Source: Ignavibacteriota bacterium (GTDB lineage Bacteria; Bacteroidota; Ignavibacteria; UBA10030; CAVZMI01). From it: 64,000 bases of DNA. Below, piece by piece: positions 10,657 through 49,601 of this stretch. A model generated the notes under the pieces. That model had not been told where the DNA came from and made no database searches. It saw only the letters and a list, made by a program, of their open reading frames with translations. Positions within the stretch are counted from its first letter, which is position 1. Each line of letters begins with the position of its first letter. A program made the translations under genes and the position numbers. The DNA lies in assembly GCA_963776275.1 (NCBI GenBank), contig CAVZMI010000007.1:1-64000 (forward strand). The letters run 5' to 3'.

Positions 10657-10751
10657 CTGATGTATTGAAAAGAGCATACATGCAACATTCATTGGGATTC
10701 TTTCACAACTGTAATGCAATAATATATTGCAGCCATGATCGAGTTCATTAA

Positions 10752-17526: not shown

Positions 17527-17579
17527 TAGTGCAATGAAGTAAATCGCCGAGACAAAGTAGATTGTTATGCGAGTTATGC
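17527..17579 (+). repeat. attI-like site, type A copy 2
   Basis: 42/49 identity with 10752..10800, ending in GTTATGC at 17573. Confidence 0.55.
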
Positions 17580-17796
17580 GCCATGCCGCGCAGAAAATAG
17601 ATGGTGTAAACCAGCCATCCATGGCTGGTTTAGGAGATTAAAGTATCTGCAAGAAGAAGAAATCCAAATAGAACTGTGCCAATTTGCAAAAGAATCAAAT
17701 TCTAATTCATTATTTAAGGATTACATTTTTAAGAAAGTTGGAGAATTAGATCAAAAGTATGGTCAAAATAAATATTATTCTCAAGTAATAGATGGA

Positions 17797-20373: not shown

Positions 20374-20574
20374 TTTTCTGATTGGCCTTAGGTGCAAACC
20401 AACGGCGCATAATACGCGTGGTTACATCGCTTATACGTTTGCCGAGCTAAATTGAACCAAAACGAATATATAATAGTGTTCGCTTTTATGTAAAAAAGCA
20501 AATTAATGATATAGATTTTGGGAGCATATTTACCTTTTCAAAGATTACATAATTGACAGCAGACTCAATCGTTT

Positions 20575-20775
20575 AAATCAAGCTTTTATCAGCAGGCAGT
20601 GCTGCACCAGGCTTGAGTGCGAGACGCTGCATTTCTTTTATCAGATTATAAATATATGTGGGCACGCAGTCTCAATTAGAGCAGATATTCCACGATGAGC
20701 GGAAACTGCAGCGAACTCTAAGCGTTGCCCACTAATTATTATATTATCACGATTGAATGCTGTTGATGTCGTGTA
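20575..20775 (-). ncRNA. Predicted bridge/seek RNA of the IS1111-type element
   Basis: Hairpin 20660-20730 has an internal loop carrying UAGAGUUCGCU and AUUGAG, which match the two sides of the insertion site. A second hairpin ~20578-20616 carries AUAAAAG, matching the element end. RNA limits are approximate. Confidence 0.65.
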
Positions 20776-21840: not shown

Positions 21841-22027
21841 TTGAGACCTCGTGTTGTGGCTATATGTTACTTTCACTAAATTATACACAGATTATTTTCA
21901 CTGTGCTTTTTTAACATAAGGTCTCAATACCGCCACGGTGCAGGTATTGAATGAGTCATTTGCAATATCCCGTAGCGGTACTGCGTAACCACGCGACACG
22001 TTATGTGAAAATGGCCGCACACATCAT

Positions 22028-24037: not shown

Positions 24038-24071
24038 ATGCAGCGCAAATGAGAATGCGTGCCGCCACATC

Positions 24072-24162
24072 ATATAACACAGCATAAAATGTCGTGATTA
24101 ACAGCACTCACCCAAATCCTTCGCTAACACGCAGGACTTCTTTTATGCTGGGAACGTTACCT
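24072..24162 (+). repeat. attC-like site
   Basis: ATATAAC-A-CAGCATAAAA ... TTTTATGCTG-GGAAC-GTTACCT (perfect 10-bp arms). Confidence 0.75.
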
Positions 24163-24737: not shown

Positions 24738-24766
24738 TTGCATTTTCTCCAGTACTTCCTTACGTT
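24738..24766 (+). promoter_or_regulatory. Repeated sigma70-type promoter, copy 2
   Basis: TTGCAT-N17-TACGTT, 45 bp upstream of the CotH gene. Confidence 0.75.
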
Positions 24767-24811
24767 CCTACATATTGAGAGGCAACCGATATACAAATTG
24801 AGGGAGATTGT

Positions 24812-33085: not shown

Positions 33086-35962
33086 ATGTGCCGGGAAAAT
33101 AACGATCACAAAACCCTGAAATATCAGATGCTGATTGTATTTGCAGCAGTAATAATATTCTCACCGGGAAATAGCAATGGCCAGACGTACCTGGATTCTA
33201 CAGCTGCAATCGATTCAAGAGTCGATGATCTCCTCGGCAGAATGACATTGGACGAGAAAATCGGACAGATGATACAAATGGATTACACCAATCTTCCATC
33301 AACATCAGACATTACGACCTACTATCTCGGATCACTTCTTGCTGCAGCCGACGAGGGACCTGCAGGAAGAACACCGGAGGCATGGGCAGACCTCTACGAC
33401 ACGCTTCAATCATATGCTTTACAGACTCGTCTTAAGATTCCTTTGATTTTTGCTCTTGATGCAATCCATGGTTTCGGTGCGATGTACGGCGCAACAGTTT
33501 TTCCTCACAACATCGGTATGGGATGCATGCGGAATGCCGAACTTGTAAAACAAGCCGCTCAAATCACGGCTGAAGAAATGTCAGCAACGGGAATCGACTG
33601 GACCCTCGGGCCTGTAGTCGCAGTGGCAAGAAATGAAAAGTGGGGCCGCACATACGAATCCTTCGGAGAATATCCGGACCTGGTAAAAGAAATGTCTGCG
33701 GCTGCTGTGGTTGGATTCCAGGGAGATACATCGGCTAAAAATATAAACATATTGGCTTGTGCGAAACATTTCATCGGAGATGGGGGCACCACAAACGGAG
33801 TGACCAACGGGAATACTCAAGTCGACGAGGCGACACTGCGAGCAATTCATCTGCCGGGATATATATCCGCGATTGAACAAAATGTCGGCTCTATCATGGT
33901 TGCTCAAAATCAATGGAACGGTATCCATTGCCATGGAAATCACTATCTGTTGACGGATCTTTTGAAAGAAGAATTGGGATTCAAAGGCATTGTCATTTCA
34001 GATTGGAACAGCTTTTTATACGCCGGCGATCCCTCTGCCCCTTTTCCTTCCCCTGTATTATATGGACCTGCCATTAAAAATTCCATCAACGCAGGAATAG
34101 ATATGGCAATGATGTCAAACTACTCTGTCTATAATCATCGCACGTATATTGATACCCTCAAGTATCTGATTAATCTTGATACAATTACTATCGAACGTAT
34201 TAACGATGCCGTGAGAAGAATACTCACGCAAAAGTTTCGATTAGGTCTTTTTGAACATCCCTATGCGAACAGGTCTCTCTTGAGTCAGGTAGGTTCAACT
34301 GCACACAGAGAAACCGCCCGAGAATGCGTCCGTCAATCATTGGTGGTATTGAAAAAGAAAGACGGCATTCTCCCCATTTCAAGGAACATTAAGCATATTC
34401 ATCTTGCAGGACGGCATGCAGACAACATGGGTTATCAATGCGGCGGCTGGACGATTACCTGGCAAGGATCAAGCGGCGACATTACTCCGGGAACTACAAT
34501 CAGAGAAGCAATTCAGCAAGTGGTACCGGACGCGGCCATTACCGTTTCCAGTGACGGCCTTGGTGCTGAAGAAGCCGATATCGGTATTGCCGTCATTGGA
34601 GAGCTGCCCTATGCAGAAGGAAACGGTGATGGAAGAGTGAATCTTGATGGAGTAGATATTGAAGCAGTTCGAAATTTAAAAAGTTACGGAATCCCCGTTG
34701 TTGTTATTCTTATCTCGGGACGCCCGATCATTCTCGATCCTATTCTTCATCACTGCGATGCTCTCATTGCCGCCTGGCTGCCCGGCACAGAAGGCGAAGG
34801 AATTGCCGATGTGCTCTTTGGCGATTATCAACCTGTCGGAAAACTCTCTCAAAGCTGGCCAAGAGATGTATCTCAAATCCCTATCAATATCGGGGATTCA
34901 GTGTATAATCCGCTCTTCAAATACGGAGATGGAATTACTTCCCTGGCTGATTCTCCTGTGGGCTCACCACCTGAAGTGTATTCGGCAAGTATCGTTGCAA
35001 CCCAGAATATGGAAATTTCCTTCAATAAAAAAATGGATGCTCCACCCGCGGCGCCTGCAGGCTTTTCGGTAATCGATAATACCGGCAATCCAACCAACAT
35101 TTCTTCTCTGAGTCTTAAGGATTCCGATTCAACTTCTTTTATTATTACTTTTGAAGACAGCATTCGGAAAGCAAATACGTATACTATTTCGTACACTGCC
35201 GGAACTATTCAGTCCCATGATCAGGGACAATTAACTGCCTTCGAGGGTGTATCCGTACACAATCTGTTGACAGATTATAAGTATCTGCATTCAGCACCGG
35301 GTAAAATTGAAGCGGAAGATTACTATAGAGGTCAGGGTATAGGAACCACTTCCTGTTCAGATGTGGGAAGCGGGAAAATGCTTTATAGCATTGATACAAA
35401 CGATTGGGTGGATTACTATGTGTACGTTTCTCAATCCGGTACATATACATTAGAATATCGCATCGCAAGCGCTGCCGATTCAGGGCAAATTGAACTGATT
35501 ACCAAAGGTGATACCTTGTCCGTTTTAAATCTTCCAGTCACCGGATCCTGGGATATATGGCAGAGCGTTCAGACTGCTGTACAACTTTCCGAAGGACCTC
35601 AGATTATCAGAATATATGCTTCGCGAGGAGGGTTCCGATTAAATTGGATACAATTATCGCCGACAACCGGCATGGATAATAACGGCGAAAACATAGTCGA
35701 GGAATTCCGGTTATCACAAAACTATCCAAATCCGTTCAATCCTTCGACAATAATCACATATCAAATTCCAAAATCGAGACATGTGAGATTGACAGTATAC
35801 GATCTCCTAGGAAGAGAAATCATGACGTTGGTAAATGAAGAGATGAGACCGGGAAGTTATCAAGCTACTTTTAATGGCACAAATTTAGCAAGTGGTGTTT
35901 ATTTTTATCGCCTCCAGGCTGGTGAATTTGTTCAAACGAGAAAGTTAATCTTGATGAAATAA
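33086..35962 (+). CDS. GH3 beta-glucosidase with CBM6-like module and T9SS CTD
   Basis: MTLDEKIGQM, DAIHG, WGRTYESFGE, ACAKHFIGDG and ISDW (nucleophile); KIEAEDY...TGSWDIWQ; QNYPNPFNP. Confidence 0.9.
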   Translation: MCRENNDHKTLKYQMLIVFAAVIIFSPGNSNGQTYLDSTAAIDSRVDDLLGRMTLDEKIGQMIQMDYTNLPSTSDITTYYLGSLLAAADEGPAGRTPEAWADLYDTLQSYALQTRLKIPLIFALDAIHGFGAMYGATVFPHNIGMGCMRNAELVKQAAQITAEEMSATGIDWTLGPVVAVARNEKWGRTYESFGEYPDLVKEMSAAAVVGFQGDTSAKNINILACAKHFIGDGGTTNGVTNGNTQVDEATLRAIHLPGYISAIEQNVGSIMVAQNQWNGIHCHGNHYLLTDLLKEELGFKGIVISDWNSFLYAGDPSAPFPSPVLYGPAIKNSINAGIDMAMMSNYSVYNHRTYIDTLKYLINLDTITIERINDAVRRILTQKFRLGLFEHPYANRSLLSQVGSTAHRETARECVRQSLVVLKKKDGILPISRNIKHIHLAGRHADNMGYQCGGWTITWQGSSGDITPGTTIREAIQQVVPDAAITVSSDGLGAEEADIGIAVIGELPYAEGNGDGRVNLDGVDIEAVRNLKSYGIPVVVILISGRPIILDPILHHCDALIAAWLPGTEGEGIADVLFGDYQPVGKLSQSWPRDVSQIPINIGDSVYNPLFKYGDGITSLADSPVGSPPEVYSASIVATQNMEISFNKKMDAPPAAPAGFSVIDNTGNPTNISSLSLKDSDSTSFIITFEDSIRKANTYTISYTAGTIQSHDQGQLTAFEGVSVHNLLTDYKYLHSAPGKIEAEDYYRGQGIGTTSCSDVGSGKMLYSIDTNDWVDYYVYVSQSGTYTLEYRIASAADSGQIELITKGDTLSVLNLPVTGSWDIWQSVQTAVQLSEGPQIIRIYASRGGFRLNWIQLSPTTGMDNNGENIVEEFRLSQNYPNPFNPSTIITYQIPKSRHVRLTVYDLLGREIMTLVNEEMRPGSYQATFNGTNLASGVYFYRLQAGEFVQTRKLILMK

Positions 35963-36007
35963 CGAGCAAGAAGAACATATATTTCAAAAAATACATAGCC
36001 AACTAGA

Positions 36008-36380
36008 CTCATAAATCATCAATCCGCCTTCGTTCCACTTCCGCCTTCGTTTCACTCCGGCGCCTGCCTGCCGGAGTGCCCGCCTTCGCTGAAGCCTTCG
36101 GTGGGCGAAGGCCTCCGGCATGCAGGCAGGGACAAGCCGGCGGATAGACCGGCTGAATAACATATCCAGACAGAGAAAAATGAATACCGAATGAATGGCC
36201 ACGACCTTAAGGTCGTGGATTTCTAATCCAAAAAATCTTTGTGGGCTTTAGCCCTACATCAATTTAATGTGGGGTTAAAAACCCTCATTTTTCTCCTCTT
36301 ATTTCCCACAAGCTACTCGCCTCGCTCCCCGTCTCGCCTTCGGCTCGCCAAGGTGTACGCTTCGGCGGAGCGGGAAGCTC
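36008..36380. repeat. Dense cluster of REP-like palindromes
   Basis: GCCTTCGC..GCGAAGGC, CCTGCC..GGCAGG, CCACGACCTTAAGGTCGTGG, GGGCTTTAGCCC and others. Confidence 0.65.
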
Positions 36381-36465
36381 GTGGCAATTCAGAAAATACA
36401 GAATGTTTTAGACCACCGGCTCAAGTGTGTCCATAGAAAACAGATAAACAGATTTTTTCAAACGT

Positions 36466-36803
36466 CTCAAATCATCAATCCGCCTTCGTTCCACTCCGGC
36501 GGACAGGTCATAGATCATCAATATCAATGGCCGTTTCATAGTTCGGTTTGCATTTCCCCTTGTAATTCCTTACGTTCTGACAAACCACGGACAATAACGA
36601 TTCTACTTCCGAATAGACAATTCAATCGGCATCAAAGGGGCTTCGGTTACAAAGTTATCCGTCGCGCGTGAAGATGCGCGGGAAAAATAAGTCGAAGAAC
36701 ATTAAAGCATACAGGGCTGAGGCAGGTGCGTCCAAAAGAAATAAATACGCTATACGACGAAGTGGTCCTGTTTCACCGTATAGCGTCTTTACAGATGTTA
36801 TGT
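36466..36803 (+). promoter_or_regulatory. Promoter plus attI-like module, type B copy 1 (promoter 36548-36576, GTT at 36797)
   Basis: Homologous to 42268..42540 and 45002..45328; ends TATAGCGTCTTTACAGAT-GTTATGT. Confidence 0.68.
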
Positions 36804-36922
36804 GCCATGCACCTGCCTGAGGCCTATATGGCAGACGATTGTTTTGAATTGTTTATGGGTTTTTCTGCTTAAGTCGAGATTATTAAATCAAACTTTACAA
36901 ACTACACGAAAGGAATATATTC

Positions 36923-37570
36923 ATGTTAACAAGATTGAAAATCAACTCATCGCAAGGGATTATTCTTGCTGTGATTGCTCTTCTTGCGTCTATTGACTTC
37001 GCATGCACCTCTTCTCGTCTGACAAATGTGTGGAAAGACCCGGAGTTCAAGAATTCCCCGATGACCAATATGCTTATCGTCGCGGCGAAAAAAAGTCCTG
37101 TGAACCGGCGTATATGGGAAGACGTAATCGTTGCAGAACTGTCTGCTCATGGTGTTACGACCACCCCTTCGTACCGATTATTTGAAGATTCTATTCCTGA
37201 TCCCGACCAGGTAGGAGCCGCTGTTCGAGAGAAGAAATTCGACGGAGTGCTTTTCATCAGGAGACTACCGACCGAGATCTCTACCAATTATGTACCACCA
37301 TCTATAAAGCGCGAGGCGGTTACACGGTATAATGAGCGTAAACAGACATACTCTACTTACTATCGAGATGTACAGCAGCCCGGCTATACTGACACTACCA
37401 AGATCGTACGTCATGAGGTTAGCGTTTTTACTACACAAGAAGGCGGCCATCTAGTGTGGTCTGGCACGGGTGAGATGATTGATCCAAGCTCCAGGGAAGC
37501 AGTCAGAAATGAAATCACTGGTTTGGTTATTCCAGAATTGGCACGACAGGGAATCATCCCTGCAAAGTAG
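36923..37570 (+). CDS. Hypothetical lipoprotein
   Basis: Hydrophobic leader with lipobox-like FAC; W.DP, RRIWED and LVWSG motifs. Confidence 0.72.
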   Translation: MLTRLKINSSQGIILAVIALLASIDFACTSSRLTNVWKDPEFKNSPMTNMLIVAAKKSPVNRRIWEDVIVAELSAHGVTTTPSYRLFEDSIPDPDQVGAAVREKKFDGVLFIRRLPTEISTNYVPPSIKREAVTRYNERKQTYSTYYRDVQQPGYTDTTKIVRHEVSVFTTQEGGHLVWSGTGEMIDPSSREAVRNEITGLVIPELARQGIIPAK

Positions 37571-37682
37571 TTCTTTTTTGATCTTTGGAGACCGTCCTTC
37601 TATCGCAGTGTATCCAATTGCAAGTTGAACATTTACATAGATAGAATCCAGATTACCATCAAATACGATGCAGGTGCACATC

Positions 37683-37781
37683 AGATAAAAGCAATAAAAA
37701 TATAGAATGAGCCATTCTGTTGTTCATCCTGCACTGAAAGTACGGGACAACGGTACGGCATTTTTGTTGCACACGTCAGTT
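37683..37781 (+). repeat. Degenerate attC-like site
   Basis: AGATAAA-A-GCAATAAAAAT ... ATTTTTGTTGC-ACAC-GTCAGTT. Confidence 0.6.
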
Positions 37782-37821
37782 GGCATTATCCTTTTAAACA
37801 TAAATGAAAGGAGACATTACT

Positions 37822-39903
37822 ATGCGTGTCAATTCTCACTTTTTATTTCTCATTGGATTTTTCATACTTGGTCAGGCCACTTTGAAGGCGCAGTGGAGTC
37901 AGACGAACGGACCAACAAGCGGTTACATAAATGCACTCACGACACTTGGGTCTACGATTATTGCTGGAACGGAAGCAGGAGCATTCCGATCCACCGATAA
38001 TGGCGCGCACTGGACAGCGGCGAACACAGGACTTACTAATTACGAAATTCTCGCACTCACATCAGGTGAGCGCATCTTCATGGGAACAGGTTCCGATTTG
38101 GTATCATCGACAGATCAGGGTGCGACTTGGTCATCATCTCTTATGAACGATTATGTTCTTTCTATTGCCACAAACGGTACATATCTCCTTGTCGGAACAT
38201 ACAGCGGTGTTTCACTCTCAACCGATAATGGTGCAAACTGGACGCAGTCGAACAACGGATTGACGAATACTACCGTTCAGGCACTCGCCATCGTTGGATC
38301 TACGTTTTTTGCCGGAACCGGAAATGGATTATTCCTCTCGACTGATTACGGTGTAAGTTGGCATGCTCCTACAACAGGCCCGACAAATTTGAATATCAGA
38401 TGCTTTACGGTAAAAGACACGAATGTATATGCAGGTACATGGGGCGGCGGTGTGTTTGTCACATCAGACACCGGTGCCCATTGGTCTGAGACGAACAACG
38501 GATTTTCTACGTCAGAGATCGTGATGTCCTTGTACACCTTTGGTACGGTGCTCTGTGTTGGGACAGGAAACGACGGGGCATACGTCTCGACTGATGATGG
38601 CGCGCATTGGAATTCTACGGCATCGCTGCCGGGGGGTGAAGTGCATGCGTTCACATCGAATAACACAACGCTCTTCACAGGGACACGCAGTTCTTTGTAT
38701 ACCTCCGCCGATACAGGAAAGCACTGGACAGAAGCATGTGACGGTATGATTGCTGCATACTGTTCTGCACTAGGGGGTTCTGGTTCGACCATCTATGCTG
38801 CTTCTGGTACTAACGGTGTGTATCTTTCCACAAATGAAGGAACAAGCTGGACAGCATCGAACAATGGATTAGATATCCCTATCGCATATACAATTGCCGT
38901 AGACGGATCGTTTATTTATCTTGGCGACAACGGCGGAGCTCACCGTTCAACGGATGGCGGTGCAAATTGGGTAACAGCTAATACAGGATTCGTGAATTAC
39001 AATCCTGTTAATACATTTTTTGTAGATGGTACAAATCTGTACTCTGGCGGAGATGATGGAGTATATCTATCTACTGATCATGCCGCAAACTGGACACCGG
39101 CAAAAAACGGATTACCTCAAGAGAATCCCAAAAAAATAATCTATGCTCTCGGCAAAATTGGCTCTAAACTCATTGCAGCAGCGTATGATTCCGGCTTCTT
39201 TGTATCGACGAACAATGCAACTAATTGGGCCCCGTCTAGTACAGGCCTTCCGCTCCCTGCAAGGGGAAAAAAATTCGTGACAGTCGGAACAAAAATCTAT
39301 GCGGGATTGCAGGGTAATAGAGGTGTGTATGTTTCGGCAGATAGTTGCAATAGCTGGACAGCCATCAATGCAGGATTAACGAATTTGGACATATATGCAT
39401 TGGCAAGTGACGGAACAAATCTATTTGCCGGCACACTTAATTGTGTATCCATTTTGATGGATGGCAGTACGAGTTGGATACCTATGAGTACCGGGCTTCC
39501 TGTGGTGGGGTCGAATGAAATAGATGCGTTGCTTGTTAATGGTGATTACCTTTACGCCACAGTCGGGAGCTCAGGAGTCTGGCGGCGTCCCTTATCAGAG
39601 ATGACGGATGTGAAGGATTACAATGCTCAGTATCAGACTAATGTATTTACCCTAAAGCAGAACTATCCAAATCCGTTCAATCCAACCACAACAATTTCAT
39701 TTAGTCTTTCGACACCATCCCTGGTGTCTTTGAAAGTATTTGATTTATTGGGAAGAGAGGTTGCGACAATCGTTTCCGAAGAACTATCGGCTGGTGATCA
39801 CTCTCGGCAATGGAATGCAGCGGGTTTTGCGAGTGGTGTATATTATTATAGACTCGAAGCTGGAAGTTTTGTTGGAACAAAGAAACTTGTTCTACTTCGA
39901 TGA
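37822..39903 (+). CDS. BNR/Asp-box beta-propeller protein with T9SS CTD
   Basis: Repeated STDNGAxWT Asp-boxes, GVWRRPLSEM, QNYPNPFNP; AAAGGAG RBS before ATG 37822. Confidence 0.88.
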   Translation: MRVNSHFLFLIGFFILGQATLKAQWSQTNGPTSGYINALTTLGSTIIAGTEAGAFRSTDNGAHWTAANTGLTNYEILALTSGERIFMGTGSDLVSSTDQGATWSSSLMNDYVLSIATNGTYLLVGTYSGVSLSTDNGANWTQSNNGLTNTTVQALAIVGSTFFAGTGNGLFLSTDYGVSWHAPTTGPTNLNIRCFTVKDTNVYAGTWGGGVFVTSDTGAHWSETNNGFSTSEIVMSLYTFGTVLCVGTGNDGAYVSTDDGAHWNSTASLPGGEVHAFTSNNTTLFTGTRSSLYTSADTGKHWTEACDGMIAAYCSALGGSGSTIYAASGTNGVYLSTNEGTSWTASNNGLDIPIAYTIAVDGSFIYLGDNGGAHRSTDGGANWVTANTGFVNYNPVNTFFVDGTNLYSGGDDGVYLSTDHAANWTPAKNGLPQENPKKIIYALGKIGSKLIAAAYDSGFFVSTNNATNWAPSSTGLPLPARGKKFVTVGTKIYAGLQGNRGVYVSADSCNSWTAINAGLTNLDIYALASDGTNLFAGTLNCVSILMDGSTSWIPMSTGLPVVGSNEIDALLVNGDYLYATVGSSGVWRRPLSEMTDVKDYNAQYQTNVFTLKQNYPNPFNPTTTISFSLSTPSLVSLKVFDLLGREVATIVSEELSAGDHSRQWNAAGFASGVYYYRLEAGSFVGTKKLVLLR

Positions 39904-39915
39904 GCGGGCAACTGT

Positions 39916-40038
39916 ACATAACGGCGAAGCAGTACTTTAGTACAGCGGGCACTACGACCCGCCTCCGGCGTGTCAATCCCGCAGTCATTTTTAAAAGTTT
40001 TGGTATGCGGACTTGCGTAATGCCCGTAGATGTTAAGT
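39916..40038 (+). repeat. attC-like site with a ~21-bp insertion
   Basis: ACATAAC-[21 nt]-A-GCGGGCACTACG ... CGTAATGCCCGT-AGAT-GTTAAGT. Confidence 0.6.
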
Positions 40039-40087
40039 GCAGTTGTTTTACATTGACATCAGATATGACAATAAGTGACATTACATC

Positions 40088-40759
40088 ATGAGCTCTGTAT
40101 TTCTCACAATCGTCCGTTTTGTTGGCTTCCTTTTCACGATATACATCTGGCGAATAATTCAATACGGACAATTTTCTGAACTCACGTCATTGATCATAAT
40201 CATCGGGTCAATCCTGCTGGTTTTCCCGGTAGTTTGGATCGGACGGAAAGCGATCGAGGTCAAACCGTCAATCCAACGTCTCGCCTGGATAACAAGCTTT
40301 ATTCACATAATACTGATGATTTTCTTTGGCGCTTCTATCATCGAAGCCATAAAATATTTCCAAGTCTCACGCGGCATAACAATACCGCTGCCGGTTGAAG
40401 CCGGAACGGTACTGCTTTGTATTACGGGTGCATGTTTGTCGTTGACCGTCGTAAATCTTGCATTAAGCGGACTCGGTGCACCCTTTGCTATTGCGTTGAG
40501 CAAACGCCTTGCAGATCGCTGGATGTACAGATTGACAAGAAATCCGATGGTCTTGTGCACTCTCGCTACACTTATTTCTACTGGCCTATACTTACAGTCT
40601 TTTTATTTTATTTTCTGGGTTTTTATGCTTGTAACACCGGCGTGGATTTATTTTCTCAAAGCATATGAAGAACGCGAGCTTGAAATCCGTTTTGGCACAT
40701 CATACCTGGACTACAAAGCCAAGACTTCTTTCTTCTGGCCAAGAAAGCCGAAGAATTAG
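40088..40759 (+). CDS. Isoprenylcysteine carboxylmethyltransferase/PEMT-family membrane protein
   Basis: YRLTRNPM and EEREL..RFG..Y..Y motifs. Confidence 0.82.
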   Translation: MSSVFLTIVRFVGFLFTIYIWRIIQYGQFSELTSLIIIIGSILLVFPVVWIGRKAIEVKPSIQRLAWITSFIHIILMIFFGASIIEAIKYFQVSRGITIPLPVEAGTVLLCITGACLSLTVVNLALSGLGAPFAIALSKRLADRWMYRLTRNPMVLCTLATLISTGLYLQSFYFIFWVFMLVTPAWIYFLKAYEERELEIRFGTSYLDYKAKTSFFWPRKPKN

Positions 40760-40782
40760 AATCAAGCCGCAGTACAACGAAC

Positions 40783-40899
40783 GCACAACAGGAAAAAAAT
40801 TATCCGTCCCGAGCTCCACCTGCGTGCTTCGCACTCCGTTGGACGAGTAATCGGGACGGGCGCTGGAAATGGCGTGCATGTTTTATCCGGACGTTAGAG
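40783..40899 (+). repeat. attC-like site
   Basis: GCACAAC-A-GGAAAAAA ... TTTTATCC-GGAC-GTTAGAG, with an inner CCGTCCCGA/TCGGGACGG stem. Confidence 0.65.
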
Positions 40900-40912
40900 C
40901 TCATTTTAAGAA

Positions 40913-41716
40913 ATGAAAAAATACTATAACTTTAGTTTTGAAATTACACATTTGTGTAATAAATATTGTGACGATTGCAGTCATAGAATAAAATATAGCA
41001 ACTATAAATATCTAACTATTTATGAATACGAAATAATACATCAGGCAATAAAACATCTTCCAATTATTGAAATTAGAATAATTGGAGGAGAACCGTTAAT
41101 GCATCCTCAGTTTAAAGAATTGATGAACAGAATATTTAATGATTTTATTTCTTCTCGAATAATCTTGATAACCAATGGGAAATTGCTTCCAAAACTCAAT
41201 AAATGCGACAGAAATCGTTTTGATAGAATATATATTACCTGGTATAAGGGATTTAATGAAGAAGAAATAAAAGAAGTTATAAACGAAGATAATGTTTTTA
41301 TCAATCGTGATAACTTCATAAAAATAGATGATTCTAAAAAGTTGAAAGATGCGCAAGCAAAAAAAATATTTAAATATTGTTCACAGAAAATATATAGATT
41401 TATTGGCACAAGGCTATATATTTGTTGTAATGCAGAGAGTATTGAAAGGATGTTGTTAAAATATAAGATTCATGTAGATATACTCGAAGATAATAATTGG
41501 CAAAATACCATTAAAAATAATTCTCACTACAAAGCATGTCGATATTGTATATTTGCTAATTCAATATCGAATAGAAAAAGATTGAGATGTTATATCGATT
41601 TGATTAAGCAAAAAATACTGTTAAATAGTCCTCTGGCAAAATACGACTTTAAGATTATTTGGCAAATATGGAGATACATTAAAAATAAGAGAAATTGGTA
41701 TAAGTTTCAAAACTAG
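40913..41716 (+). CDS. Radical SAM protein
   Basis: CNKYCDDC, GGEPLMHP and ITNG motifs; very AT-rich. Confidence 0.85.
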   Translation: MKKYYNFSFEITHLCNKYCDDCSHRIKYSNYKYLTIYEYEIIHQAIKHLPIIEIRIIGGEPLMHPQFKELMNRIFNDFISSRIILITNGKLLPKLNKCDRNRFDRIYITWYKGFNEEEIKEVINEDNVFINRDNFIKIDDSKKLKDAQAKKIFKYCSQKIYRFIGTRLYICCNAESIERMLLKYKIHVDILEDNNWQNTIKNNSHYKACRYCIFANSISNRKRLRCYIDLIKQKILLNSPLAKYDFKIIWQIWRYIKNKRNWYKFQN

Positions 41717-41770
41717 TCCTAACCGCCACTATTCATAGCGGCAAACCATTATGTGCAATATGCGTTAGAA
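41717..41770 (+). repeat. Possible short or degenerate attC-like site
   Basis: TCCTAAC right after the stop codon and GTTAGAA 47 bp later; inner arms are poorly formed. Confidence 0.35.
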
Positions 41771-41800
41771 GGCCAATATGAAGAAAGGTATCGGTATCAA

Positions 41801-42088
41801 ATGACCAAAAAGAGATTTACGCTAATGGCCCGCATAAGCACGGACAATCGTCGGGCGATCAAGCAGGTCTTGGAAGAGCTCGTTGCAAAGAGGTCGATCA
41901 CCTCAACAGAAGAGGGGTTCATTGTGAAGGCGACGATGTACGGGGATAGCGCGCGTGAGCTGAACCGATCGTTACTCTCTGCACTGCGCCGGGTCGAGCG
42001 CAAAACCCGTCTCCGCTCAGAATGGAAGTCAGGCGGTACAACGGAGCGTTTCTTCGACTATGTTCCAAAGGGTTCGCATAAAGCCTGA
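41801..42088 (+). CDS. Small hypothetical protein
   Basis: 95-aa ORF containing ARELNRSLLSALRRVERKTRLRSEW. Confidence 0.65.
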   Translation: MTKKRFTLMARISTDNRRAIKQVLEELVAKRSITSTEEGFIVKATMYGDSARELNRSLLSALRRVERKTRLRSEWKSGGTTERFFDYVPKGSHKA

Positions 42089-42267
42089 TGCAGAATTCGT
42101 GCTTGCATTGGCATACTTCGACCTATGTCATTTCCAACTCATAATGTGACGCGCACACTGCACATGACACTTAACTAAGAAGTGATACTGCCGCGAAGCG
42201 GGCTCGTCTCGCTTCGCTCAGCGAAGCGAGAGATGAGACCATAATTGAAAAAATATAGAGCCACCCG

Positions 42268-42540
42268 GACTCATAAATCATCAATCCGCCTTCGTTCCAC
42301 TCCGGCGGACAGGTCATAAATCATCAATATCAATGGCCATTTTATACTTTGGTTTGCATTTCCCTTCGTATTTTCTTACGTTCTTACAGAAATTACACAT
42401 ACTTCCTTCAGTCGATAGCAGAGGGGCTTCGATTACGAAATTGTCTGTGCCGCGTAAAGATGCGCGGGACGGATAACCCGAAGACCATTAAAGCATACAG
42501 AGGCTATTCGGGTATATTTAAAAGAAATAAAAATATACCG
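42268..42540 (+). promoter_or_regulatory. Promoter module, type B copy 2 (promoter 42354-42382)
   Basis: Direct repeat of 36466..~36750 including REP, TCATAAATCATCAAT doublet, promoter and CGAAGACCATTAAAGCATACAG block; no intact GTT core. Confidence 0.68.
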
Positions 42541-42732
42541 AAACGCATCTAAGGCGAAGTGCGATGAATTCATCGGATTGCTCTAATGTGTCATGCAGTG
42601 ATTAATTCAAAGAGCCCGGTATGAAAAAACTGCACACAGGTATCTATAGCAAGACTTGAAGGGAACAACTAATTCTATAACTGTGATATTATTTGGTAGC
42701 ATCAATATGAATACAATGGAGGAATGTGAAAC

Positions 42733-43431
42733 ATGAAGAGTAGAGTAGATTTTTTTAGAAATATTGGGCGCATTGGAGCATTTATTGCTCTCTTTATATC
42801 TTCGATAGTGTTAATTTTTTGGTCATATATAGAAGTTTTATTACCGAAATTTTCTGGTATACAGTTATTGGGAATAATTACAACAGCAATAAGTATTCTT
42901 GCAATAGATTTTTATGCTCAACTCAAACGAACACATACTAATGAAGTAGTGCAACTTTCACATCATACAATAAAAGATAGTATTTCTCTAGCGAGTGCGG
43001 CAGAACAAAGGATAAAGATATTACGAATATTTGCGTCTACATCTGAGATGATACTTCCTGTAATAAAAGAGACCGATTTGTACATTGAACAATGTAAATT
43101 ATTACTGCAGGAACTAGATGAAACAACCGGTGATAAAAAAGCTATTGAGATGAACCGAAAGTGTGAAACATTTATCAAAAATTGGGAGGAACTTATTAAT
43201 GTAAATAAAATTGATAAACTGGATATAAAAAGATATAGGTTTGTGCCCAACCATTTTTATATAATATTTGATAATAAACATCTTGTATATGGTTTATATT
43301 ATCCAACAGATTCTGCCGTGCATTCTGTCCGTTTTATTGATCCGATACTTGTTGAATCAAGCACAATATCAGGACAAATGTTGATTGAAAAACATATTGA
43401 ACAATTCGAAAATATTTTTAGGACCTTATAG
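42733..43431 (+). CDS. Hypothetical protein with two N-terminal TM helices
   Basis: GGAGG RBS; two hydrophobic helices then a soluble domain; AT-rich. Confidence 0.72.
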   Translation: MKSRVDFFRNIGRIGAFIALFISSIVLIFWSYIEVLLPKFSGIQLLGIITTAISILAIDFYAQLKRTHTNEVVQLSHHTIKDSISLASAAEQRIKILRIFASTSEMILPVIKETDLYIEQCKLLLQELDETTGDKKAIEMNRKCETFIKNWEELINVNKIDKLDIKRYRFVPNHFYIIFDNKHLVYGLYYPTDSAVHSVRFIDPILVESSTISGQMLIEKHIEQFENIFRTL

Positions 43432-43491
43432 AAACATCTTATTAAAGTACGGGGAAGAAACTATTAATAATTCGAAAAGAAGGATACTGTA

Positions 43492-44244
43492 TTGAGCAAT
43501 AATATTGAGGTTAAATTACTACAGTGGAACATCTGGTATTTAGAAAAGGTTGATGGTATAGTAGATGTTCTTCGTGAATTGGACGCAGATATACTATGCT
43601 TACAGGAGCTTAGTGGGAATACGGAAATTAATAAAAAAATAGAGACTGATTCTTATATCCATAAAAAGTTGGGATTGCACTACTATAGTGCTAAATCACA
43701 AGAATGGATAAACTGGCATAAAGATTATCAAGCTAATGGGATATTCAGCAAATACACAATAAAAAAAGGGAGGAATATATTTATAAAGAAACCTCATTCA
43801 AAGAAAGCGAGAGATTATTCAAACGAAGGGAGAATATACATAGAGGTTGAATTGAATATTAGTGGGAAAACACTTTTTGTAGGGACAGCCCATCTTTCTT
43901 ACATACACAAATTTGAAATAGGCGATAGGCGATGTGCCGAAGAAAATAACTTATTAAAAGCACTAACTAAAAGAAAAAAATTTTTATTTTGCGGCGATCT
44001 TAATGCACCGCCGGATTCAAATATCTATAAAGCATTATCAAAAAAGTACAGACATTGCGGCCCAGAAATTACTCAAAAAACCTGGACAACAAAACCATTC
44101 AGTCATAATGGTTTTATAGAGAATGATTTAAATTGGAGATTAGATTACGTATTTGCTTCAAGAGATATAGAAATAATCGAAACAAGGATAATACAAACAG
44201 ATGTTTCTGATCATCTTCCTATAATGGTAAGAATAAGGTTATGA
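43492..44244 (+). CDS. Endonuclease/exonuclease/phosphatase family protein
   Basis: WNI, DILCLQE, AHL, GDLN, LDYVF and SDHLP motifs. Confidence 0.9.
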   Translation: MSNNIEVKLLQWNIWYLEKVDGIVDVLRELDADILCLQELSGNTEINKKIETDSYIHKKLGLHYYSAKSQEWINWHKDYQANGIFSKYTIKKGRNIFIKKPHSKKARDYSNEGRIYIEVELNISGKTLFVGTAHLSYIHKFEIGDRRCAEENNLLKALTKRKKFLFCGDLNAPPDSNIYKALSKKYRHCGPEITQKTWTTKPFSHNGFIENDLNWRLDYVFASRDIEIIETRIIQTDVSDHLPIMVRIRL

Positions 44245-44915
44245 TAAAAAATAAAATAGACGATTATTTGAAGATAACAATAGAGACGTATGAAAAAAAT
44301 GCAGAAGAATATAAAATACATAGAAAAGACGCTAGTCCTATAGCAGAATTAGAAAAATTAATCTCTTATTGTAATGGTGGTTATATTCTAGATGCTGGAT
44401 GTGGGCCGGGAAGAGATACTATATGGCTCTTAAATAAAGGAATTAAAGCCTTTGGAATAGACCTTTGTGATTCTTTTTTACGAATTGCGAGAGAAGATTC
44501 AGGGATTAATGTTTTTGCTAAAATGAATCTTTTAGAAATGTCATTTCTACAAGAAACGTTTGATGGCATTTGGTGTTGTGTAGTTTTATCTCATTTAAAA
44601 AAATCACTGTTAATAAATGCATTGATAGAACTCAATAGAGTATTGAAACGAGGTGGCGTTTTATTTATTGCTGTGAAAAAAGGTAGTGGAGAAGGTTTTC
44701 AGGTTGAAAAGGAATTTGCCGATAGTCCGAGATATGTATCATATTTTTCAGATGAAGAAGTATTAATTGCCATAGAAAAATCAGGATTTAAAACCCTAGA
44801 GCAATACTATTATAATGAGTATAAACGACATAGAGGAACTCATAGGGATATTGACTATATATTTAATTTTTCTAAAAAAGTAAAACAGCAATTGACAGCT
44901 GATATTGCTGCATAA
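44241..44915 (+). CDS. Class I SAM-dependent methyltransferase
   Basis: ILDAGCGPGRD, FDGIW and RVLKRGG motifs; ATGA overlap with the upstream gene. Confidence 0.9.
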   Translation: MIKNKIDDYLKITIETYEKNAEEYKIHRKDASPIAELEKLISYCNGGYILDAGCGPGRDTIWLLNKGIKAFGIDLCDSFLRIAREDSGINVFAKMNLLEMSFLQETFDGIWCCVVLSHLKKSLLINALIELNRVLKRGGVLFIAVKKGSGEGFQVEKEFADSPRYVSYFSDEEVLIAIEKSGFKTLEQYYYNEYKRHRGTHRDIDYIFNFSKKVKQQLTADIAA

Positions 44916-45001
44916 AAAGGTCATAGCCTTCTCCTCCTTATTTAAGGAGGGGATACCGGGGAGGTTCTAAACAGCCCTCGAAACTCATGAGCTATCGAAA
45001 C

Positions 45002-45328
45002 TTGCATTTCCCCTCGTAATTTCTTACGTTCTGACAGAAATTACACATACTTCCTTCAGTCGATACCAGTGTCAAGTACCAAAAATAACTTGAAGAATTC
45101 AATTGAGTGAATTCAGTCGATTCCGCTCGGAAATGCAAATTATTACGCTCCGACTTATTCAAGTTATTTTTGAATCGAGACACCAGAGGAACTTCAGTTG
45201 CGAAATTATCTGTCCCGCGTAAAGATGTGCGGCACGGATAAGTCGAAGACCATTAAAGCATACAGAGGCTGTACAGGTACATTTAAAAGAAATAATTACG
45301 CAATATAGCGTCTATACAGATGTTATGT
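45002..45328 (+). promoter_or_regulatory. Promoter plus attI-like module, type B copy 3 (promoter 45002-45030, GTT at 45322)
   Basis: Homologous to the other two copies with an extra ~115 bp insert; ends TATAGCGTCTATACAGAT-GTTATGT. Confidence 0.68.
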
Positions 45329-45385
45329 GAAAATGGCGGCACGCCATTTTCCGCCTCAAGGTATCTCAATTCATCGGAGATAGCA

Positions 45386-45835
45386 ATGTACGAACAATTT
45401 ATAAACTGGCTTAAGACCAACTGGATCACGGCCGTTCTTCTTCTAGCTGCTGCTGGCCTCATTGCACTTCCGAAAGTCAGGGATGGCGCGGTGCTTTTAT
45501 ACTCCTGGGCCAAACGGCCTTTTAAAAAGGGAAGTCAATCACGTGAAGAAGGACCAATCGCTTACGAGGTCTCAGGTGAGAAAGTTAGCTTCACGGAGTT
45601 GATCCGTAGCATTGATTTTGATGCTGTAAAGGTTCATGCAATTACACATCGTGTTGGCATTAGTGCGGAATACGAGTGGCTGAAGCGGAGGTATCCTGGC
45701 TACAAACTCATCACACAGCAACTCACATCGCTTCAAGCACTGGCTGGTGACGTTAACTTTTCCCTTGATCAGATACCTTTTGATCTTCTCACAATAAATC
45801 TGCCAGACGGAAGGGCCGAAAGAGATATACTTTGA
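45386..45835 (+). CDS. Hypothetical membrane-anchored cassette protein, probably frameshifted near 45815
   Basis: GGAG RBS; GISAEYEWL motif; a plausible continuation KEIYFDISSFF lies in another frame. Confidence 0.6.
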   Translation: MYEQFINWLKTNWITAVLLLAAAGLIALPKVRDGAVLLYSWAKRPFKKGSQSREEGPIAYEVSGEKVSFTELIRSIDFDAVKVHAITHRVGISAEYEWLKRRYPGYKLITQQLTSLQALAGDVNFSLDQIPFDLLTINLPDGRAERDIL

Positions 45836-45946
45836 TATTTCAAGTTTCTTTCATGGCTTGGCTCTTACTCAAATCGACTCGAAAAGTGTCATTGCGTATA
45901 AAATTTCGACTTTCTATGAAGAACAACTTGGGCGTGCCGCCACTTC

Positions 45947-46066
45947 ACATAACACGCGTAAAAATGATGGCGATGTAGGAGGCGGTTGAACATTGCGCCG
46001 CTCACAAAAATAAATGGATCATTAATAGTTCGCGTCGCAACGTCATTTTTACGCGGGACGTTATGC
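45947..46066 (+). repeat. attC-like site (best preserved)
   Basis: ACATAAC-A-CGCGTAAAAATGA ... TCATTTTTACGCG-GGAC-GTTATGC (perfect 13-bp arms). Confidence 0.82.
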
Positions 46067-46153
46067 GCCACGTGGCTTGTTATCTAGTCGACCAAATTCG
46101 TCATACCGACAAATGGCGCGTAGCTTGCCCCTAGAAATAAAAGGAGGAAAACC

Positions 46154-47101
46154 ATGAAGAGCTACATGAAGCTCGGAATTCTTGCGCTCGCACTTGCGTG
46201 CTCAGTGCGAGCTCAATCGGTGCAAGGATCAGCAGAGGGAAAGCAAGCATTGGAAGTACTCCCCCGTGCCACAGTCACCGTGCTGGTGGACAACATGGTA
46301 GGTCGCGGAGATGTGCTCGGCGAATGGGGTGCCGCATTTCTGATCAACACAGACCAGCACCAGATTCTCTTCGATACTGGTGGGGGACAAGTCCTCAGCG
46401 GAAATTCCCGAGCCCTTGGTGTGGATCTCGCCAAAACTGAAGCCATTGTCATCAGCCATGGGCATCCGGATCACACAGGGGGACTCGATGCTGCTTTGAA
46501 TGTCTGCAAGTCTGTGGATTTATTTGTTCACCCAGCCGTTTTCGAGACTAGATATTATAAGGGAGATTCCGGCGCGGTGGCTTATAGCTTCGTTTTCACC
46601 AGACAACAACTGCTTCAACGAGTTCGCAATCTGGTTGAGACGAAGGGACCGACTCTCATTCGTGAAGGAGTAATGGTCACGGGCCAGGTTCCCCGACTAA
46701 ACGATTTTGAAGATACTGGTTTGCGCGGGGACGTTTTCCTTGACAGCAGTTTGACAATAGAAGATCCAATCCCGGATGATCAAGCCGTGTTCTTCCGTGT
46801 TCCAGAGGGAGTCGTTATACTGCTCGGATGCGGCCACGCCGGGCTGGTCAATACAATGGAGTATGTAAGCAAGCTAACGGGTGAGCAGCACATCTACGCG
46901 GTCATTGGCGGCACTCATTTGCTTAATGCTTCTCCCTCGCGAATGCAAAAGACCATCGAAGCATTGCGGATGTACGACATACAGAAGATCATGCTGTCGC
47001 ATTGTACCGGCCTTCGCGCATACGCACAGCTGGCAAATGCTTTTCCAGGTCGTTGCAGCTGGCCGGCTAGTGGAACCACATTGAAGTTCGGCTCTCAGTA
47101 A
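46154..47101 (+). CDS. Secreted MBL-fold metallo-hydrolase
   Basis: LFDTG, SHGHPDHTGG, GCGHAG, GGTHL and HCTG motifs; signal peptide; AGGAGG RBS. Confidence 0.88.
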   Translation: MKSYMKLGILALALACSVRAQSVQGSAEGKQALEVLPRATVTVLVDNMVGRGDVLGEWGAAFLINTDQHQILFDTGGGQVLSGNSRALGVDLAKTEAIVISHGHPDHTGGLDAALNVCKSVDLFVHPAVFETRYYKGDSGAVAYSFVFTRQQLLQRVRNLVETKGPTLIREGVMVTGQVPRLNDFEDTGLRGDVFLDSSLTIEDPIPDDQAVFFRVPEGVVILLGCGHAGLVNTMEYVSKLTGEQHIYAVIGGTHLLNASPSRMQKTIEALRMYDIQKIMLSHCTGLRAYAQLANAFPGRCSWPASGTTLKFGSQ

Positions 47102-47287: not shown

Positions 47288-47579
47288 GGTGGTCATTCCT
47301 ATCGCAACCCTAACATTTTCACAGATGCAACTGCAGCATTGACGATCGGCGAGAAATACAAACCGAATCCCAATGTCGGGATTACAAGCAGCATAACGAT
47401 CGCAATCTGCCACACACTGAAATAAATAGGTTCTTTTGATTCTTCGGCTTCTCGCAGAAAGAGATTACGCAATATTCTGACATAATAATAAAGCGAGATT
47501 ACACTTGAGATTTAAGAAGATAAGTATAAAAGAGCATCTTTTAGTTCGATGAAGATTGCACAAGATTTTTTTAAAAATG

Positions 47580-49565
47580 CTACTGAAGTCCTGAGGCAAC
47601 GATCTCGGCAATATCTTTAACGCGAATTATCTTTGCCTTCTCATCCTTCAGCCCATCCTCGAACATGGTCAGACAATAGGGACAGGTGACACACACCGTA
47701 TCAGGGTTTTGGACAAGAGCTTCTTTAATCCGGGTGAGGTTGATCCGGGAACCTAAGCTTTCTTCCATCCACATCCTGCCTCCACCAGCTCCGCAGCAGA
47801 ATGAGTTTTTCCTGTTTCTTTTCATCTCGGCAGGAGCCATACCTGTGGTGATTTTTATCGCCTGGCGCGGTGCATCATAAATTTCATTGTGCCGCCCCAA
47901 GTAGCAGGAGTCATGAAAAATAACTTTTCCAAGTTGTGTCACTTTTTCATTGACCCTTAATTTCCCTTCCTTAAGAAGAATGTTAATCAACTCGCTGTGG
48001 TGGACAACTTCGAGATTTAGGCCATACTGCTTGTAATCGTTTTTCAGAGTACTGAAACAGTGGGGACATTGGGTGATAATTTTCTTGACTCCTTTTTCCT
48101 GGAAGAGTCTGACATTCTCTTTGGCTATTCTATCAAAAATGAATTCATTGCCGAGCCTTCTAAGGCTGTCCCCGCAGCATTTCTCGTCTTTGCCTAAAAT
48201 TCCCCATGAGATACCGGCTGCATTAAGGATTGTGGCCAGGGCCAGGGTCACTTGTTTGTTACGGGAATCAAAAGCGCCCGCGCATCCTACATAAAAAAGG
48301 TATTCTGTATCGCCGGCCGAAAACTGCTTGACATTATGTCCGGATGTCCATTTCGAGCGCTCCGCCGGGGCAATGCCCCAAGGATTACTCCGCTGTTCCA
48401 TGTTTTCAAAGAGATTGAGAAGCTCCTCAGGAAATTTTGCCTCCAATTCCACCAGATGGCGTCTCATCTTGACGATTTTAGGCATGTGCTCGATGAAAAC
48501 AGGGCAGACCTCCATGCAGGCACCACAAGTCGTGCAAGACCAGATCGCGCTCTCCTGATTGATGCCTTCGCCGCCGCTTCCGATAAGAGGGAGTGTGGGA
48601 GTTCCGTCTTTTTTCAAAATCGGACCGTTTCTCAAGAGATTAATCTTAATATCATGAATAACCTGCCGTGGATTGAGAGGCTTTTCCGTATTCGTTGCAG
48701 GGCAGACATCCTGGCATCTACCACATTCTGTGCAGGAGTAAGAGTCGAAGAGGTCTTTCCATGTGAAGAGGTTCACCCTTCCCACACCAAAAGTATTCCC
48801 TTTTTTAAATTCCTCCCTGGGCTGAGTATTCGGCTTTTCAAGGCTTTTGAAATAGCAATTAGGAATTGATGTCATGATGTGCATATGTTTGCTGAGGGGG
48901 AGAACATTGATAAAAGTCAGAAGCACGAGAGCATGGAGCCACCAGAAGATATCCTCCAAGAATTCTAGCCTGGAAGGAAAAACGCCAGCCAAGTATCCCG
49001 CAGCAAAAGAAGAGATAGGTCTGTAATTGCCGGCAGCTTCTTTGCCTGAAGCAATTTCAACCGTATGCATCCCGAAGAAAGCAATCATCAGCAGGGCTAT
49101 GAAGGTCAGAATAAGAAAAGCCTCGAAGCTCTTGGCCTTTACATAGGGAGTGCTCAAGTAAGCAGGAGCAAAGAAGATCCGTCTGCTAAACGCGATGAGG
49201 ATGCTGATGAGAGTCGTGAGGGAAATGATCTCGAAGATAAATGAAATAGGATAATAGACATCTACAGGGAGATGGGAGAGACTGATTGACGGGAAAAGGC
49301 CATGCATGAGGAACTCACCATTGGCGATGATCAGTATGATGAACGACCAGAAAATGACAAAATGGTTGAGACCGAAAACACGGCTCACGACCCTTTTTTG
49401 ACCAAAGGCATAGAAGAGCATAGCCCAGATTCTTTTGAAGAAATGACTAAAACGGTCTTCGGGTTTCCCGAAGGTGATCAAACTGAAGCGTCTATAGCAG
49501 CTCCATACAAATAAAGCCATAGAAGTTGCAAACAATAAGCCGAAAATAGTCGTATTATGTGACAT
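47580..49565 (-). CDS. Membrane-bound Fe-S oxidoreductase (FadF/HdrD-like, CCG domains)
   Basis: N-terminal TM region, CTECGRCQDVCP, CTTCGACMEVCP, two CCG motifs, HDSCYLGR. Confidence 0.9.
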   Translation of the reverse strand: MSHNTTIFGLLFATSMALFVWSCYRRFSLITFGKPEDRFSHFFKRIWAMLFYAFGQKRVVSRVFGLNHFVIFWSFIILIIANGEFLMHGLFPSISLSHLPVDVYYPISFIFEIISLTTLISILIAFSRRIFFAPAYLSTPYVKAKSFEAFLILTFIALLMIAFFGMHTVEIASGKEAAGNYRPISSFAAGYLAGVFPSRLEFLEDIFWWLHALVLLTFINVLPLSKHMHIMTSIPNCYFKSLEKPNTQPREEFKKGNTFGVGRVNLFTWKDLFDSYSCTECGRCQDVCPATNTEKPLNPRQVIHDIKINLLRNGPILKKDGTPTLPLIGSGGEGINQESAIWSCTTCGACMEVCPVFIEHMPKIVKMRRHLVELEAKFPEELLNLFENMEQRSNPWGIAPAERSKWTSGHNVKQFSAGDTEYLFYVGCAGAFDSRNKQVTLALATILNAAGISWGILGKDEKCCGDSLRRLGNEFIFDRIAKENVRLFQEKGVKKIITQCPHCFSTLKNDYKQYGLNLEVVHHSELINILLKEGKLRVNEKVTQLGKVIFHDSCYLGRHNEIYDAPRQAIKITTGMAPAEMKRNRKNSFCCGAGGGRMWMEESLGSRINLTRIKEALVQNPDTVCVTCPYCLTMFEDGLKDEKAKIIRVKDIAEIVASGLQ

Positions 49566-49601
49566 GTGTTTTTCTATCTACAAAATTCAATGGTCTCTTA
49601 A

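Follow-up and report, generated by a model that had tools for sequence, protein, structure and literature searches.

Repeated attI-Like Modules with a Promoter-Like Block in an Integrase-Less Cassette Array of an Ignavibacteriota Genome

Introduction

In a textbook integron, one attI site and one cassette promoter (Pc) lie next to intI, so that expression is limited to the neighbourhood of the array head and new cassettes have a single point of entry. The locus described here raises the question of how a cassette array on a contig without a recombinase gene came to hold several attI-like sites, and whether cassettes could enter and be expressed at each of them. It lies in a window of 64000 nucleotides (nt), which is the whole stretch analysed (contig C7:1-64000 of genome G000, an Ignavibacteriota bacterium, GCA_963776275.1). 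The G000 assembly comprises 3.7 Mb in 38 contigs and is 96% complete, with a contamination estimate of 5.3%. It was compared with a sister genome (G001), with a metagenome contig (L062) whose flank is ~95% identical to G000, and with a sample of 151 genomes of the order. An original prediction, made from the window sequence, had described a repeated non-coding module, with a promoter-like block at one end and an attI-like site at the other, as a chain of mini-platforms within the array. The reading favoured below is that each module is probably an integrase-less copy of the lineage's integron-type cassette-insertion platform, with the recombinase supplied in trans and the block serving as promoter.

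The Repeated Module

A BLAST search of the whole G000 assembly with copy 2 as the query found three non-coding module copies of 250-330 nt, at 36466, 42268 and 44999, all in a single array and on a single strand:

36466-36800, + strand: module copy 1, with the upstream repeat (36466-36547), the block (36548-36577), the leader hairpin (36638-36700) and the attI-like end (36747-36800)
36747-36800, + strand: end of copy 1, a palindrome extended to a 40-nt hairpin (36747-36786; as DNA, -13.5 kcal/mol, z -4.1), a 10-nt spacer and GTTA (36797-36800)
42268-42590, + strand: module copy 2, with the upstream repeat, the block (42354-42383), the leader hairpin (42424-42486) and a diverged end with CTAA at ~42583
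44999-45325, + strand: module copy 3, with the block (45002-45031), an insertion (45069-45183) and the leader hairpin (45189-45251)
45298-45325, + strand: end of copy 3, a palindrome (45298-45311), a spacer (45312-45321) and GTTA (45322-45325)

Besides itself (42354-42560), copy 2 matched copy 3 at 45184-45295 (87% identity, E 1.8e-32) and 45002-45069 (94%, E 1.9e-23), and copy 1 at 36548-36745 (70%, E 2.2e-19). No fourth copy was detected in the 3.7 Mb genome, the remaining BLAST matches all having E >= 0.1. The three copies of the original prediction are borne out by this search (E 2e-19 to 2e-32), and the conserved blocks that it named are all present in the module alignments.

The module begins with an upstream repeat, common to copies 1 and 2 only (copy 3 begins at the block, at about 44999). 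Then follow the 30-nt block (TTGCATTTyC..GTAaTTyCTTACGTTC), a variable stretch, a nested hairpin region of ~65 nt (the leader hairpin), the conserved sequences CGAAGAMCATTAAAGCATACAG and AAAAGAAATAA, and the end. In copies 1 and 3 the end reads ...ACGC..GCGT-CTWTACAGAT-GTTATGTG. The prediction had correctly assigned a common end, ...TATAGCGTCTWTACAGAT-GTTATGTG, to these two copies (36779-36804 and 45304-45329); copy 2 is not simply without it, as a diverged version is present there, with CTAA replacing GTTA at about 42583. The genes 3' of the modules are mutually unrelated and belong to no Pfam family. Neither a G|TT junction nor an attC was found directly upstream of any module copy, and the modules do not qualify as gene-less promoter cassettes.

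The insertion in copy 3 (45069-45183) is 115 nt long and palindromic, with 32-nt inverted arms that are 78% complementary. Sequence resembling TTCAGTCGAT is duplicated in it, and it could be a small mobile insert of palindromic type. Upstream of copy 1 (36153-36466) lies a non-coding multi-copy repeat of ~300 nt with several hairpins, relatives of which occur on C23 (two places), C20, C21, C32 and C35, with 70-88% identity to the G001 version. Copy 1 also contains 22 nt (36708-36729) with 86% complementarity to the first part of the cassette behind it (36809-36830), across the att site; a weaker version was seen by eye in G001, and none in copy 3 or L062.

The Module End and the Recombinase-Linked Site

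The 3' end of the module recurs next to a recombinase gene. Over ~43 nt, copy 3 (query positions 105-147) shows 98% identity with C22:10732-10773, which follows immediately on a tyrosine recombinase gene and a GIY-YIG open reading frame (ORF). On C23, an intact copy of the recombinase gene is followed by a variant site, AACGCTATATAGCGTT-GTTGCAAAT-GTTAG, and by the same first cassette as on C22. Copy 1 agrees with the recombinase-linked site in its right arm, its spacer and GTTA. Only the last 45-60 nt of the module are shared with that site, not the whole module; ~25 nt upstream of the module palindrome align by eye with the last codons of the recombinase, and similarity ends beyond this point.

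The common geometry is a 14-nt palindrome, 10 nt ending in TACAGAT, and a crossover at G|TTA. Among 30 recombinase loci fetched from the order, 28 have at least 40 nt of downstream sequence, and 19 of these show the cassette-start pattern GTTA[GT]N[CT]G[CT][CA]A within 130 nt of the recombinase stop codon, where ~0.002 per locus was estimated for chance. At 14 of the 30 loci the geometry is exact, with a 14-nt palindrome, 10 nt and GTT (15 script calls minus L081, which was judged false). The palindrome arms covary between loci (ACGCAATATTGCGT, ACGACATATGTCGT, ACGCTATATAGCGT), and in copy 1, G001:C4 and G001:C5 an insertion of ~26 nt at the palindrome centre extends the hairpin, so that a folded structure or two half-sites fit better than a duplex core of fixed spacing. 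An attI next to an integrase is accordingly present at C23, at C22 and at 19 of the 28 relatives' loci; the window, having no recombinase, lacks this arrangement. What the window holds instead is, by its sequence, a delta-attI: a partial attI that ends at the crossover and replaces attC inside an array. Integrase-less attI sites with a recombinase C-terminus remnant and upstream promoter-like sequence are also present in G003:C15 and G001:C5.

Close to where the array ends on the right, at 47459-47480, the left arm of the attI palindrome (ATTACGCAATAT) appears once more, unaccompanied by the other parts of the site, perhaps as a remnant or by chance.

Cassettes Behind the Modules

The DNA that follows the site differs from one occurrence to the next. 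The G001 module has the upstream flank of copy 1 and then DNA without a counterpart in C7, and the cassette pair that follows copy 1 in the window (36798-39909) stands in G001 behind an ordinary attC with a decayed core, not behind a module. L062 is the orthologue of copy 2; its GTTA end is intact, yet another cassette lies behind it. Since copy 1, its G001 orthologue, L062 and copy 3 all have differing followers, four different cassettes are found behind one conserved site. The cassette encoding an MBL-fold protein has different left neighbours in G000 and G001, with the break exactly at G|TTATGCGCC. Two inter-genome junctions fall exactly at G|TT. The comparison of the two genomes shows an apparent shuffling of cassettes, and recent use of the module sites is likely.

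Because the site is linked to a recombinase gene and the cassettes behind it vary, the predicted attI rather than attC nature of the module end is well supported, and the 3' end of the module very likely derives from attI. Both of the checks proposed at the outset, for a module copy beside a tyrosine recombinase and for differing cassettes after GTT, came out positively for the 3' end of the module, the first by the recombinase-linked matches (98% over ~43 nt at C22, the variant at C23, and the relatives). The proposed chain of mini-platforms holds insofar as the integrase-less attI sites of the array number more than one; of the three modules in the window, the site is intact in copies 1 and 3 only, and copy 2, with its degenerate core, would be at best a doubtful platform.

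A Short Recombinase Heads attC Arrays

The C23 recombinase is an uninterrupted gene of 311 amino acids with 98% amino acid identity to the C22 copy. The best NCBIfam model for the short recombinase is TIGR02249 (integron integrase), but the scores of 221-244 bits fall short of its cut-off (265), and positions 181-234 of the profile have no match; the best matches in the G000 genome are on C23 (237.7 bits) and C22 (220.6 bits), and neither has the IntI-specific domain. The closest solved structure is VchIntIA (2A3V), of which about 40 residues are absent from the short recombinase. Aligned with a canonical IntI of G002, from the same family of genomes, it shows 34% identity and 41 gap positions in the region of the missing domain, and the two have a common ...IYTH...KSPLD tail.

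The short recombinase was found in 56 of the 151 genomes of the order (E <= 1e-60) and canonical IntI, counted above the TIGR02249 cut-off, in 60 of the 151, G000 and G001 not being among the latter. Both forms occur in 20 genomes and the short form only in 36, the two genome lists having been compared by hand on the assumption, suggested by shared handles, that they cover the same sample. Dense textbook attC arrays (TAAC...GTTA) lie behind the short gene on C23 of G000 and at all five further loci (G124, G028, G128, G059 and G072), the first four of which are not in the list of genomes with canonical IntI. G124, in 6 contigs, is an example in which the short recombinase heads textbook attC arrays. 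A protein search returned more than 5,500 relatives at E <= 1e-40, many in metagenome-assembled genomes (MAGs) of Ignavibacteriales/Bacteroidota, under names such as XerD, 'tyrosine-type recombinase/integrase' and 'site-specific tyrosine recombinase/integron integrase'.

A tree was built from 27 short recombinases together with 6 canonical IntIs and 1 Xer-like protein (L070, L079, L085 and L086 were left out); it did not fix the position of the root. A very long branch leads to a single clade of the canonical IntIs (Shimodaira-Hasegawa-like approximate likelihood ratio test, SH-aLRT, 100), and the Xer branch is extremely long. The tree favours neither ancestral absence nor secondary loss of the domain in the short form.

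The C22 gene (C22:9512-10735, L038/L070; the C23 counterpart is C23:235648-236583, L039) is split by the GIY-YIG ORF after the codon for the catalytic Tyr, and its last ~35 codons form an in-frame continuation at the end of the latter. C22 could represent a variant of the C23 region from another strain.

The Promoter-Like Block

The pattern TTGCAT-N17-TACGTT has five matches in G000 and four in G001, all of them inside arrays and on the cassette strand, and a reversed control pattern gave no matches. The block had been predicted in three places; its presence is confirmed, and the number is now five, the two further occurrences being outside the modules:

10628-10657, + strand: block at the array head, followed by a different att-like end, ...GTGCGTT-GTTATGCG, with the G at 10789
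24738-24767, + strand: block alone, 45 nt upstream of the start of a CotH-family gene (24812)

The regions upstream of G000 tRNA genes show, by eye, TTGaca or TTGCAT, N16-18 and TATATT, and TTGCAT-N17-TACGTT is therefore a plausible but imperfect promoter. The integrase-less attI of G001:C5 has a diverged block ahead of it, and that of G003:C15 a consensus TTGACA-N17-TATATT. The chances that the block functions as a promoter are about even.

Explanations for the Module

According to the favoured explanation, a module would be an integrase-less copy of the cassette-insertion platform. Its 3' end would retain attI and, from the recombinase reading frame, the final ~25 nt, the remainder of the recombinase gene having been replaced by a leader of 150-270 nt and the conserved 30-nt promoter-like block. 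The recombinase is encoded on C23, elsewhere in the genome, and so could act in trans at the modules, inserting or exchanging cassettes at internal sites, while the block would transcribe the genes downstream. This account supposes that the short recombinase catalyses such events, that the sites are still active, and that the leader has some role. It is also conceivable, and proposed here tentatively, that the modules serve as additional docking sites for a separate, unrecognised class of integron, defined by an IntI relative without the IntI-specific domain and by an attI that abuts the integrase stop codon.

Several observations weigh against the platform explanation. The short recombinase has no IntI-specific domain (intI_Cterm), which, as reported by Messier and Roy in 2001, is said to be necessary for IntI activity. 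A canonical IntI could be the real mover of the cassettes and be missing from an assembly that is 96% complete. The differences between genomes could reflect homologous recombination or deletion rather than site-specific events. The core of copy 2 is degenerate. The block agrees with the Escherichia coli sigma-70 hexamers at only 3/6 and 3/6 positions and is omitted by a scan for an E. coli-type consensus, and in the leader hairpin none of the 22 pairs is compensatory across five sequences, while 8 of the 22 are broken in at least one of them.

The strongest competitor is that the modules are fossils. Past attI x attC recombination, or deletion of a recombinase gene, would have left delta-attI remnants that were spread by segmental duplication; the sites would now be unused, and the array would change only at attC sites or by homologous recombination. 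The degeneration of copy 2 is in keeping with this, as is the degenerate core (GTCAG) of the attC after the cassette of copy 1, and G001 has arrays and modules but neither a recombinase match (E <= 1e-60) nor a canonical IntI. Decay is not what is seen, however, in copies 1 and 3, C22, L062 and G001, where the palindrome-spacer-GTTA geometry is almost unchanged, and the four different cassettes behind the site do not suit disuse. According to PMC12901181, moreover, the delta-attI architectures that were tested proved functional. The fossil explanation is considered rather unlikely.

The leader could alternatively be the main part of the module, a cis-regulatory RNA leader or small RNA (a promoter with a structured 5' region), the att likeness being secondary. 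All five sequences allow a nested hairpin to be drawn (89% of cells paired), the 256 nt of copy 1 have a fold z of -3.0, and the downstream genes are mutually unrelated, as they might be for a shared regulatory leader. The variation within the hairpin speaks otherwise, every variable pair changing on one side only or being broken. Rfam gave no relevant match at the gathering threshold, nor any at E <= 5 over 35900-46200. The 115-nt insertion of copy 3 and a 20-nt difference in copy 1 alter the spacing freely; given that insertion, the distance from leader to block is not critical. The leader core was also found only in this genus, in one scan of each kind with a 20-nt pattern: species-representative genomes gave 7 stretches, of which 1 is related (a G001 contig), and metagenome contigs gave 8, of which 2 are related (L062, and L066, which is the G001 copy), the rest in both scans being chance matches. 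With no Rfam match and no covariation, the leader gained no support as a structured regulatory RNA or single-stranded DNA fold, and an RNA element as the main function of the module is quite improbable.

By eye, a short ORF starts from an ATG inside the hairpin and is in frame in four of five copies, with 15 to about 45 codons; G001 has no ATG and an early stop, and most substitutions alter the residue.

A reading of the module as one end of an insertion sequence, or of a miniature inverted-repeat transposable element, is highly improbable: it is repeated and non-coding, with a palindromic insertion in copy 3 and a multi-copy repeat upstream of copy 1, but its copies all lie in one array and on one strand, it has no terminal inverted repeats, target duplications or associated transposase, and so falls outside such elements, and its end is the recombinase-linked att site.

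Comparison with Known Systems

The site resembles the attI of integrons (e.g. attI1 by intI1) in being tied to a recombinase gene, in that cassettes start at G|TT, and in having no full attC-like R''/L'' partner. TACAG(A/G)T repeats occur in direct orientation upstream of the site and resemble accessory binding repeats, as in the layout of attI1. The site differs in its position, 15-70 nt past the stop codon of a recombinase gene with the same orientation, in the covariation of its 14-nt palindrome, which can take up a 26-nt extension of the hairpin, and in that the window holds more than one site without any recombinase gene.

Delta-attI-type cassettes have been described inside class 1 and class 2 arrays, and some were shown to recombine, according to PMC12901181. 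As there, a partial attI replaces attC in the variable region, and the order is ORF, delta-attI, cassette; the partial attI measures 14-244 nt in the examples given there and about 45-60 nt here. The present case differs in its setting, a large array on the chromosome of an uncultured Bacteroidota/Ignavibacteriales-type MAG, in being joined to a repeated promoter-like block and a leader, and in that the source recombinase lacks the IntI domain. The gene-less, promoter-bearing cassettes of Vibrio superintegrons, as outlined in PMC11014356, are likewise non-coding units in a long array that could activate downstream cassettes; they are, however, true cassettes bounded by attC, whereas the module has no 5' G|TT junction and an attI-type end. 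The module is a new form that unites the two ideas, in which block, leader, recombinase remnant and attI are repeated in a chromosomal integrase-less array.

Integrons with a co-oriented integrase, as treated in PMC4889954, share with the short recombinase loci the common direction of gene and cassettes and the insertion site 3' of the gene. Their integrases have the IntI-specific domain, unlike the recombinase linked to the module. At canonical IntI loci of the order, TGTTAG lies about 170-190 nt behind the stop codon in 4 of 6 inspected. The same paper describes clusters of attC sites lacking an integron integrase (CALIN), which the window array resembles in having attC sites on a contig without a recombinase; it differs in its attI copies and repeated promoter blocks, which are not described in the literature searched, the supplementary tables of PMC4889954 and PMC9024848 lying outside that search.

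Several integrase-less copies of attI, each with a probable promoter, would permit entry and expression of cassettes at several depths of a long chromosomal array. What surprises more is the family of short integrases heading attC arrays. A recombinase without the domain that defines IntI heads true attC arrays in many genomes, and therefore standard integron finders would label such loci integrase-less. If the short integrase truly recombines attC with attI, the extra domain is not required for cassette capture, and arrays could grow in trans at several attI copies equipped with promoters. This natural short variant could offer a direct test of the role of the IntI-specific domain.

The Surrounding Cassette Array

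The array and the att sites recognised in it are as follows:

10628-47135, + strand: recombinase-less cassette array (CALIN-like), between radA (9149-10543, - strand) and iron-sulfur (Fe-S)/electron transfer flavoprotein (ETF) genes (47580-50924, - strand)
24066-24159, + strand: attC, homologue of 45944-46066, fold z -2.6
36798-37781, + strand: cassette after copy 1, with a gene (36923-37570) and an attC-like site (37656-37781) whose core is degenerate (GTCAG at 37775)
39914-40035, + strand: attC-like site, R'' ...CATAAC and R' GTTAAG at 40032, with a weak fold (z -1.1)
40778-40896, + strand: attC-like site ending ...TTTTATCCGGAC|GTTAG, G at 40893, with a weak fold (z -0.5)
45323-46060, + strand: cassette after copy 3, with a gene (about 45387-45835) and its own attC (45944-46066)

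On the + strand, the Pfam matches of the array genes (~10.6-47.1 kb) include hydrolases with a type IX secretion system (T9SS) tail, an HNH-TPR protein, a HEPN protein, a methylase, a PEMT-like protein, a radical SAM protein, an EEP nuclease, a methyltransferase and the MBL-fold protein. Eight G|TTA junction candidates lie on the same strand (13996, 17573, 22000, 24156, 29358, 36797, 40893 and 46060), and none on the minus strand across 13996-46060. The attC at 45944-46066 reads ...CACATAAC-ACGCGTAAAAATGA...TCATTTTTACGCG-GGAC-GTTATGCG, and its fold pairs ATAAC with GTTAT as well as the L boxes; the R and L boxes are paired both here and in the homologue at 24066-24159, which identifies the two as attC sites, although all attC calls rest on junction patterns and single folds, without an attC covariance model. 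Contig C7 has attC sites and gave no tyrosine recombinase match, and the region is therefore an integrase-less cassette array; with at least two attC sites and no integron integrase nearby, it falls under the usual description of a CALIN. The first 23 nt of the copy 3 cassette are an inverted repeat of 45932-45954.

Within 20374-22006, an attC is split by an IS110-family transposase gene (20776-21888, - strand; Pfam DEDD_Tnp_IS110 and Transposase_20), with its left half, ...GGCGCATAATACGCGTGGTTAC, near 20400 and its right half, ...GTAACCACGCGACAC|GTTATGTG, ending at 22000. A second type of att-like end, ...GAAGTAAATCGYCGAGACAAAGTR..TT-GTTATGCGA, occurs twice, at the array head behind the promoter-like block (10745-10797) and inside the array (17530-17580), and at 17564-17581 two GTTATGCG cores stand in succession. 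In L115 (G124:C2:1188700-1208699), the cassette start GTTAGCCGTCATTGGGTTGC occurs four times, at 967, 2556, 2877 and 4010, and several of the next junctions lie 321 nt beyond these starts, as though one array contained repeats of a short cassette without a gene.

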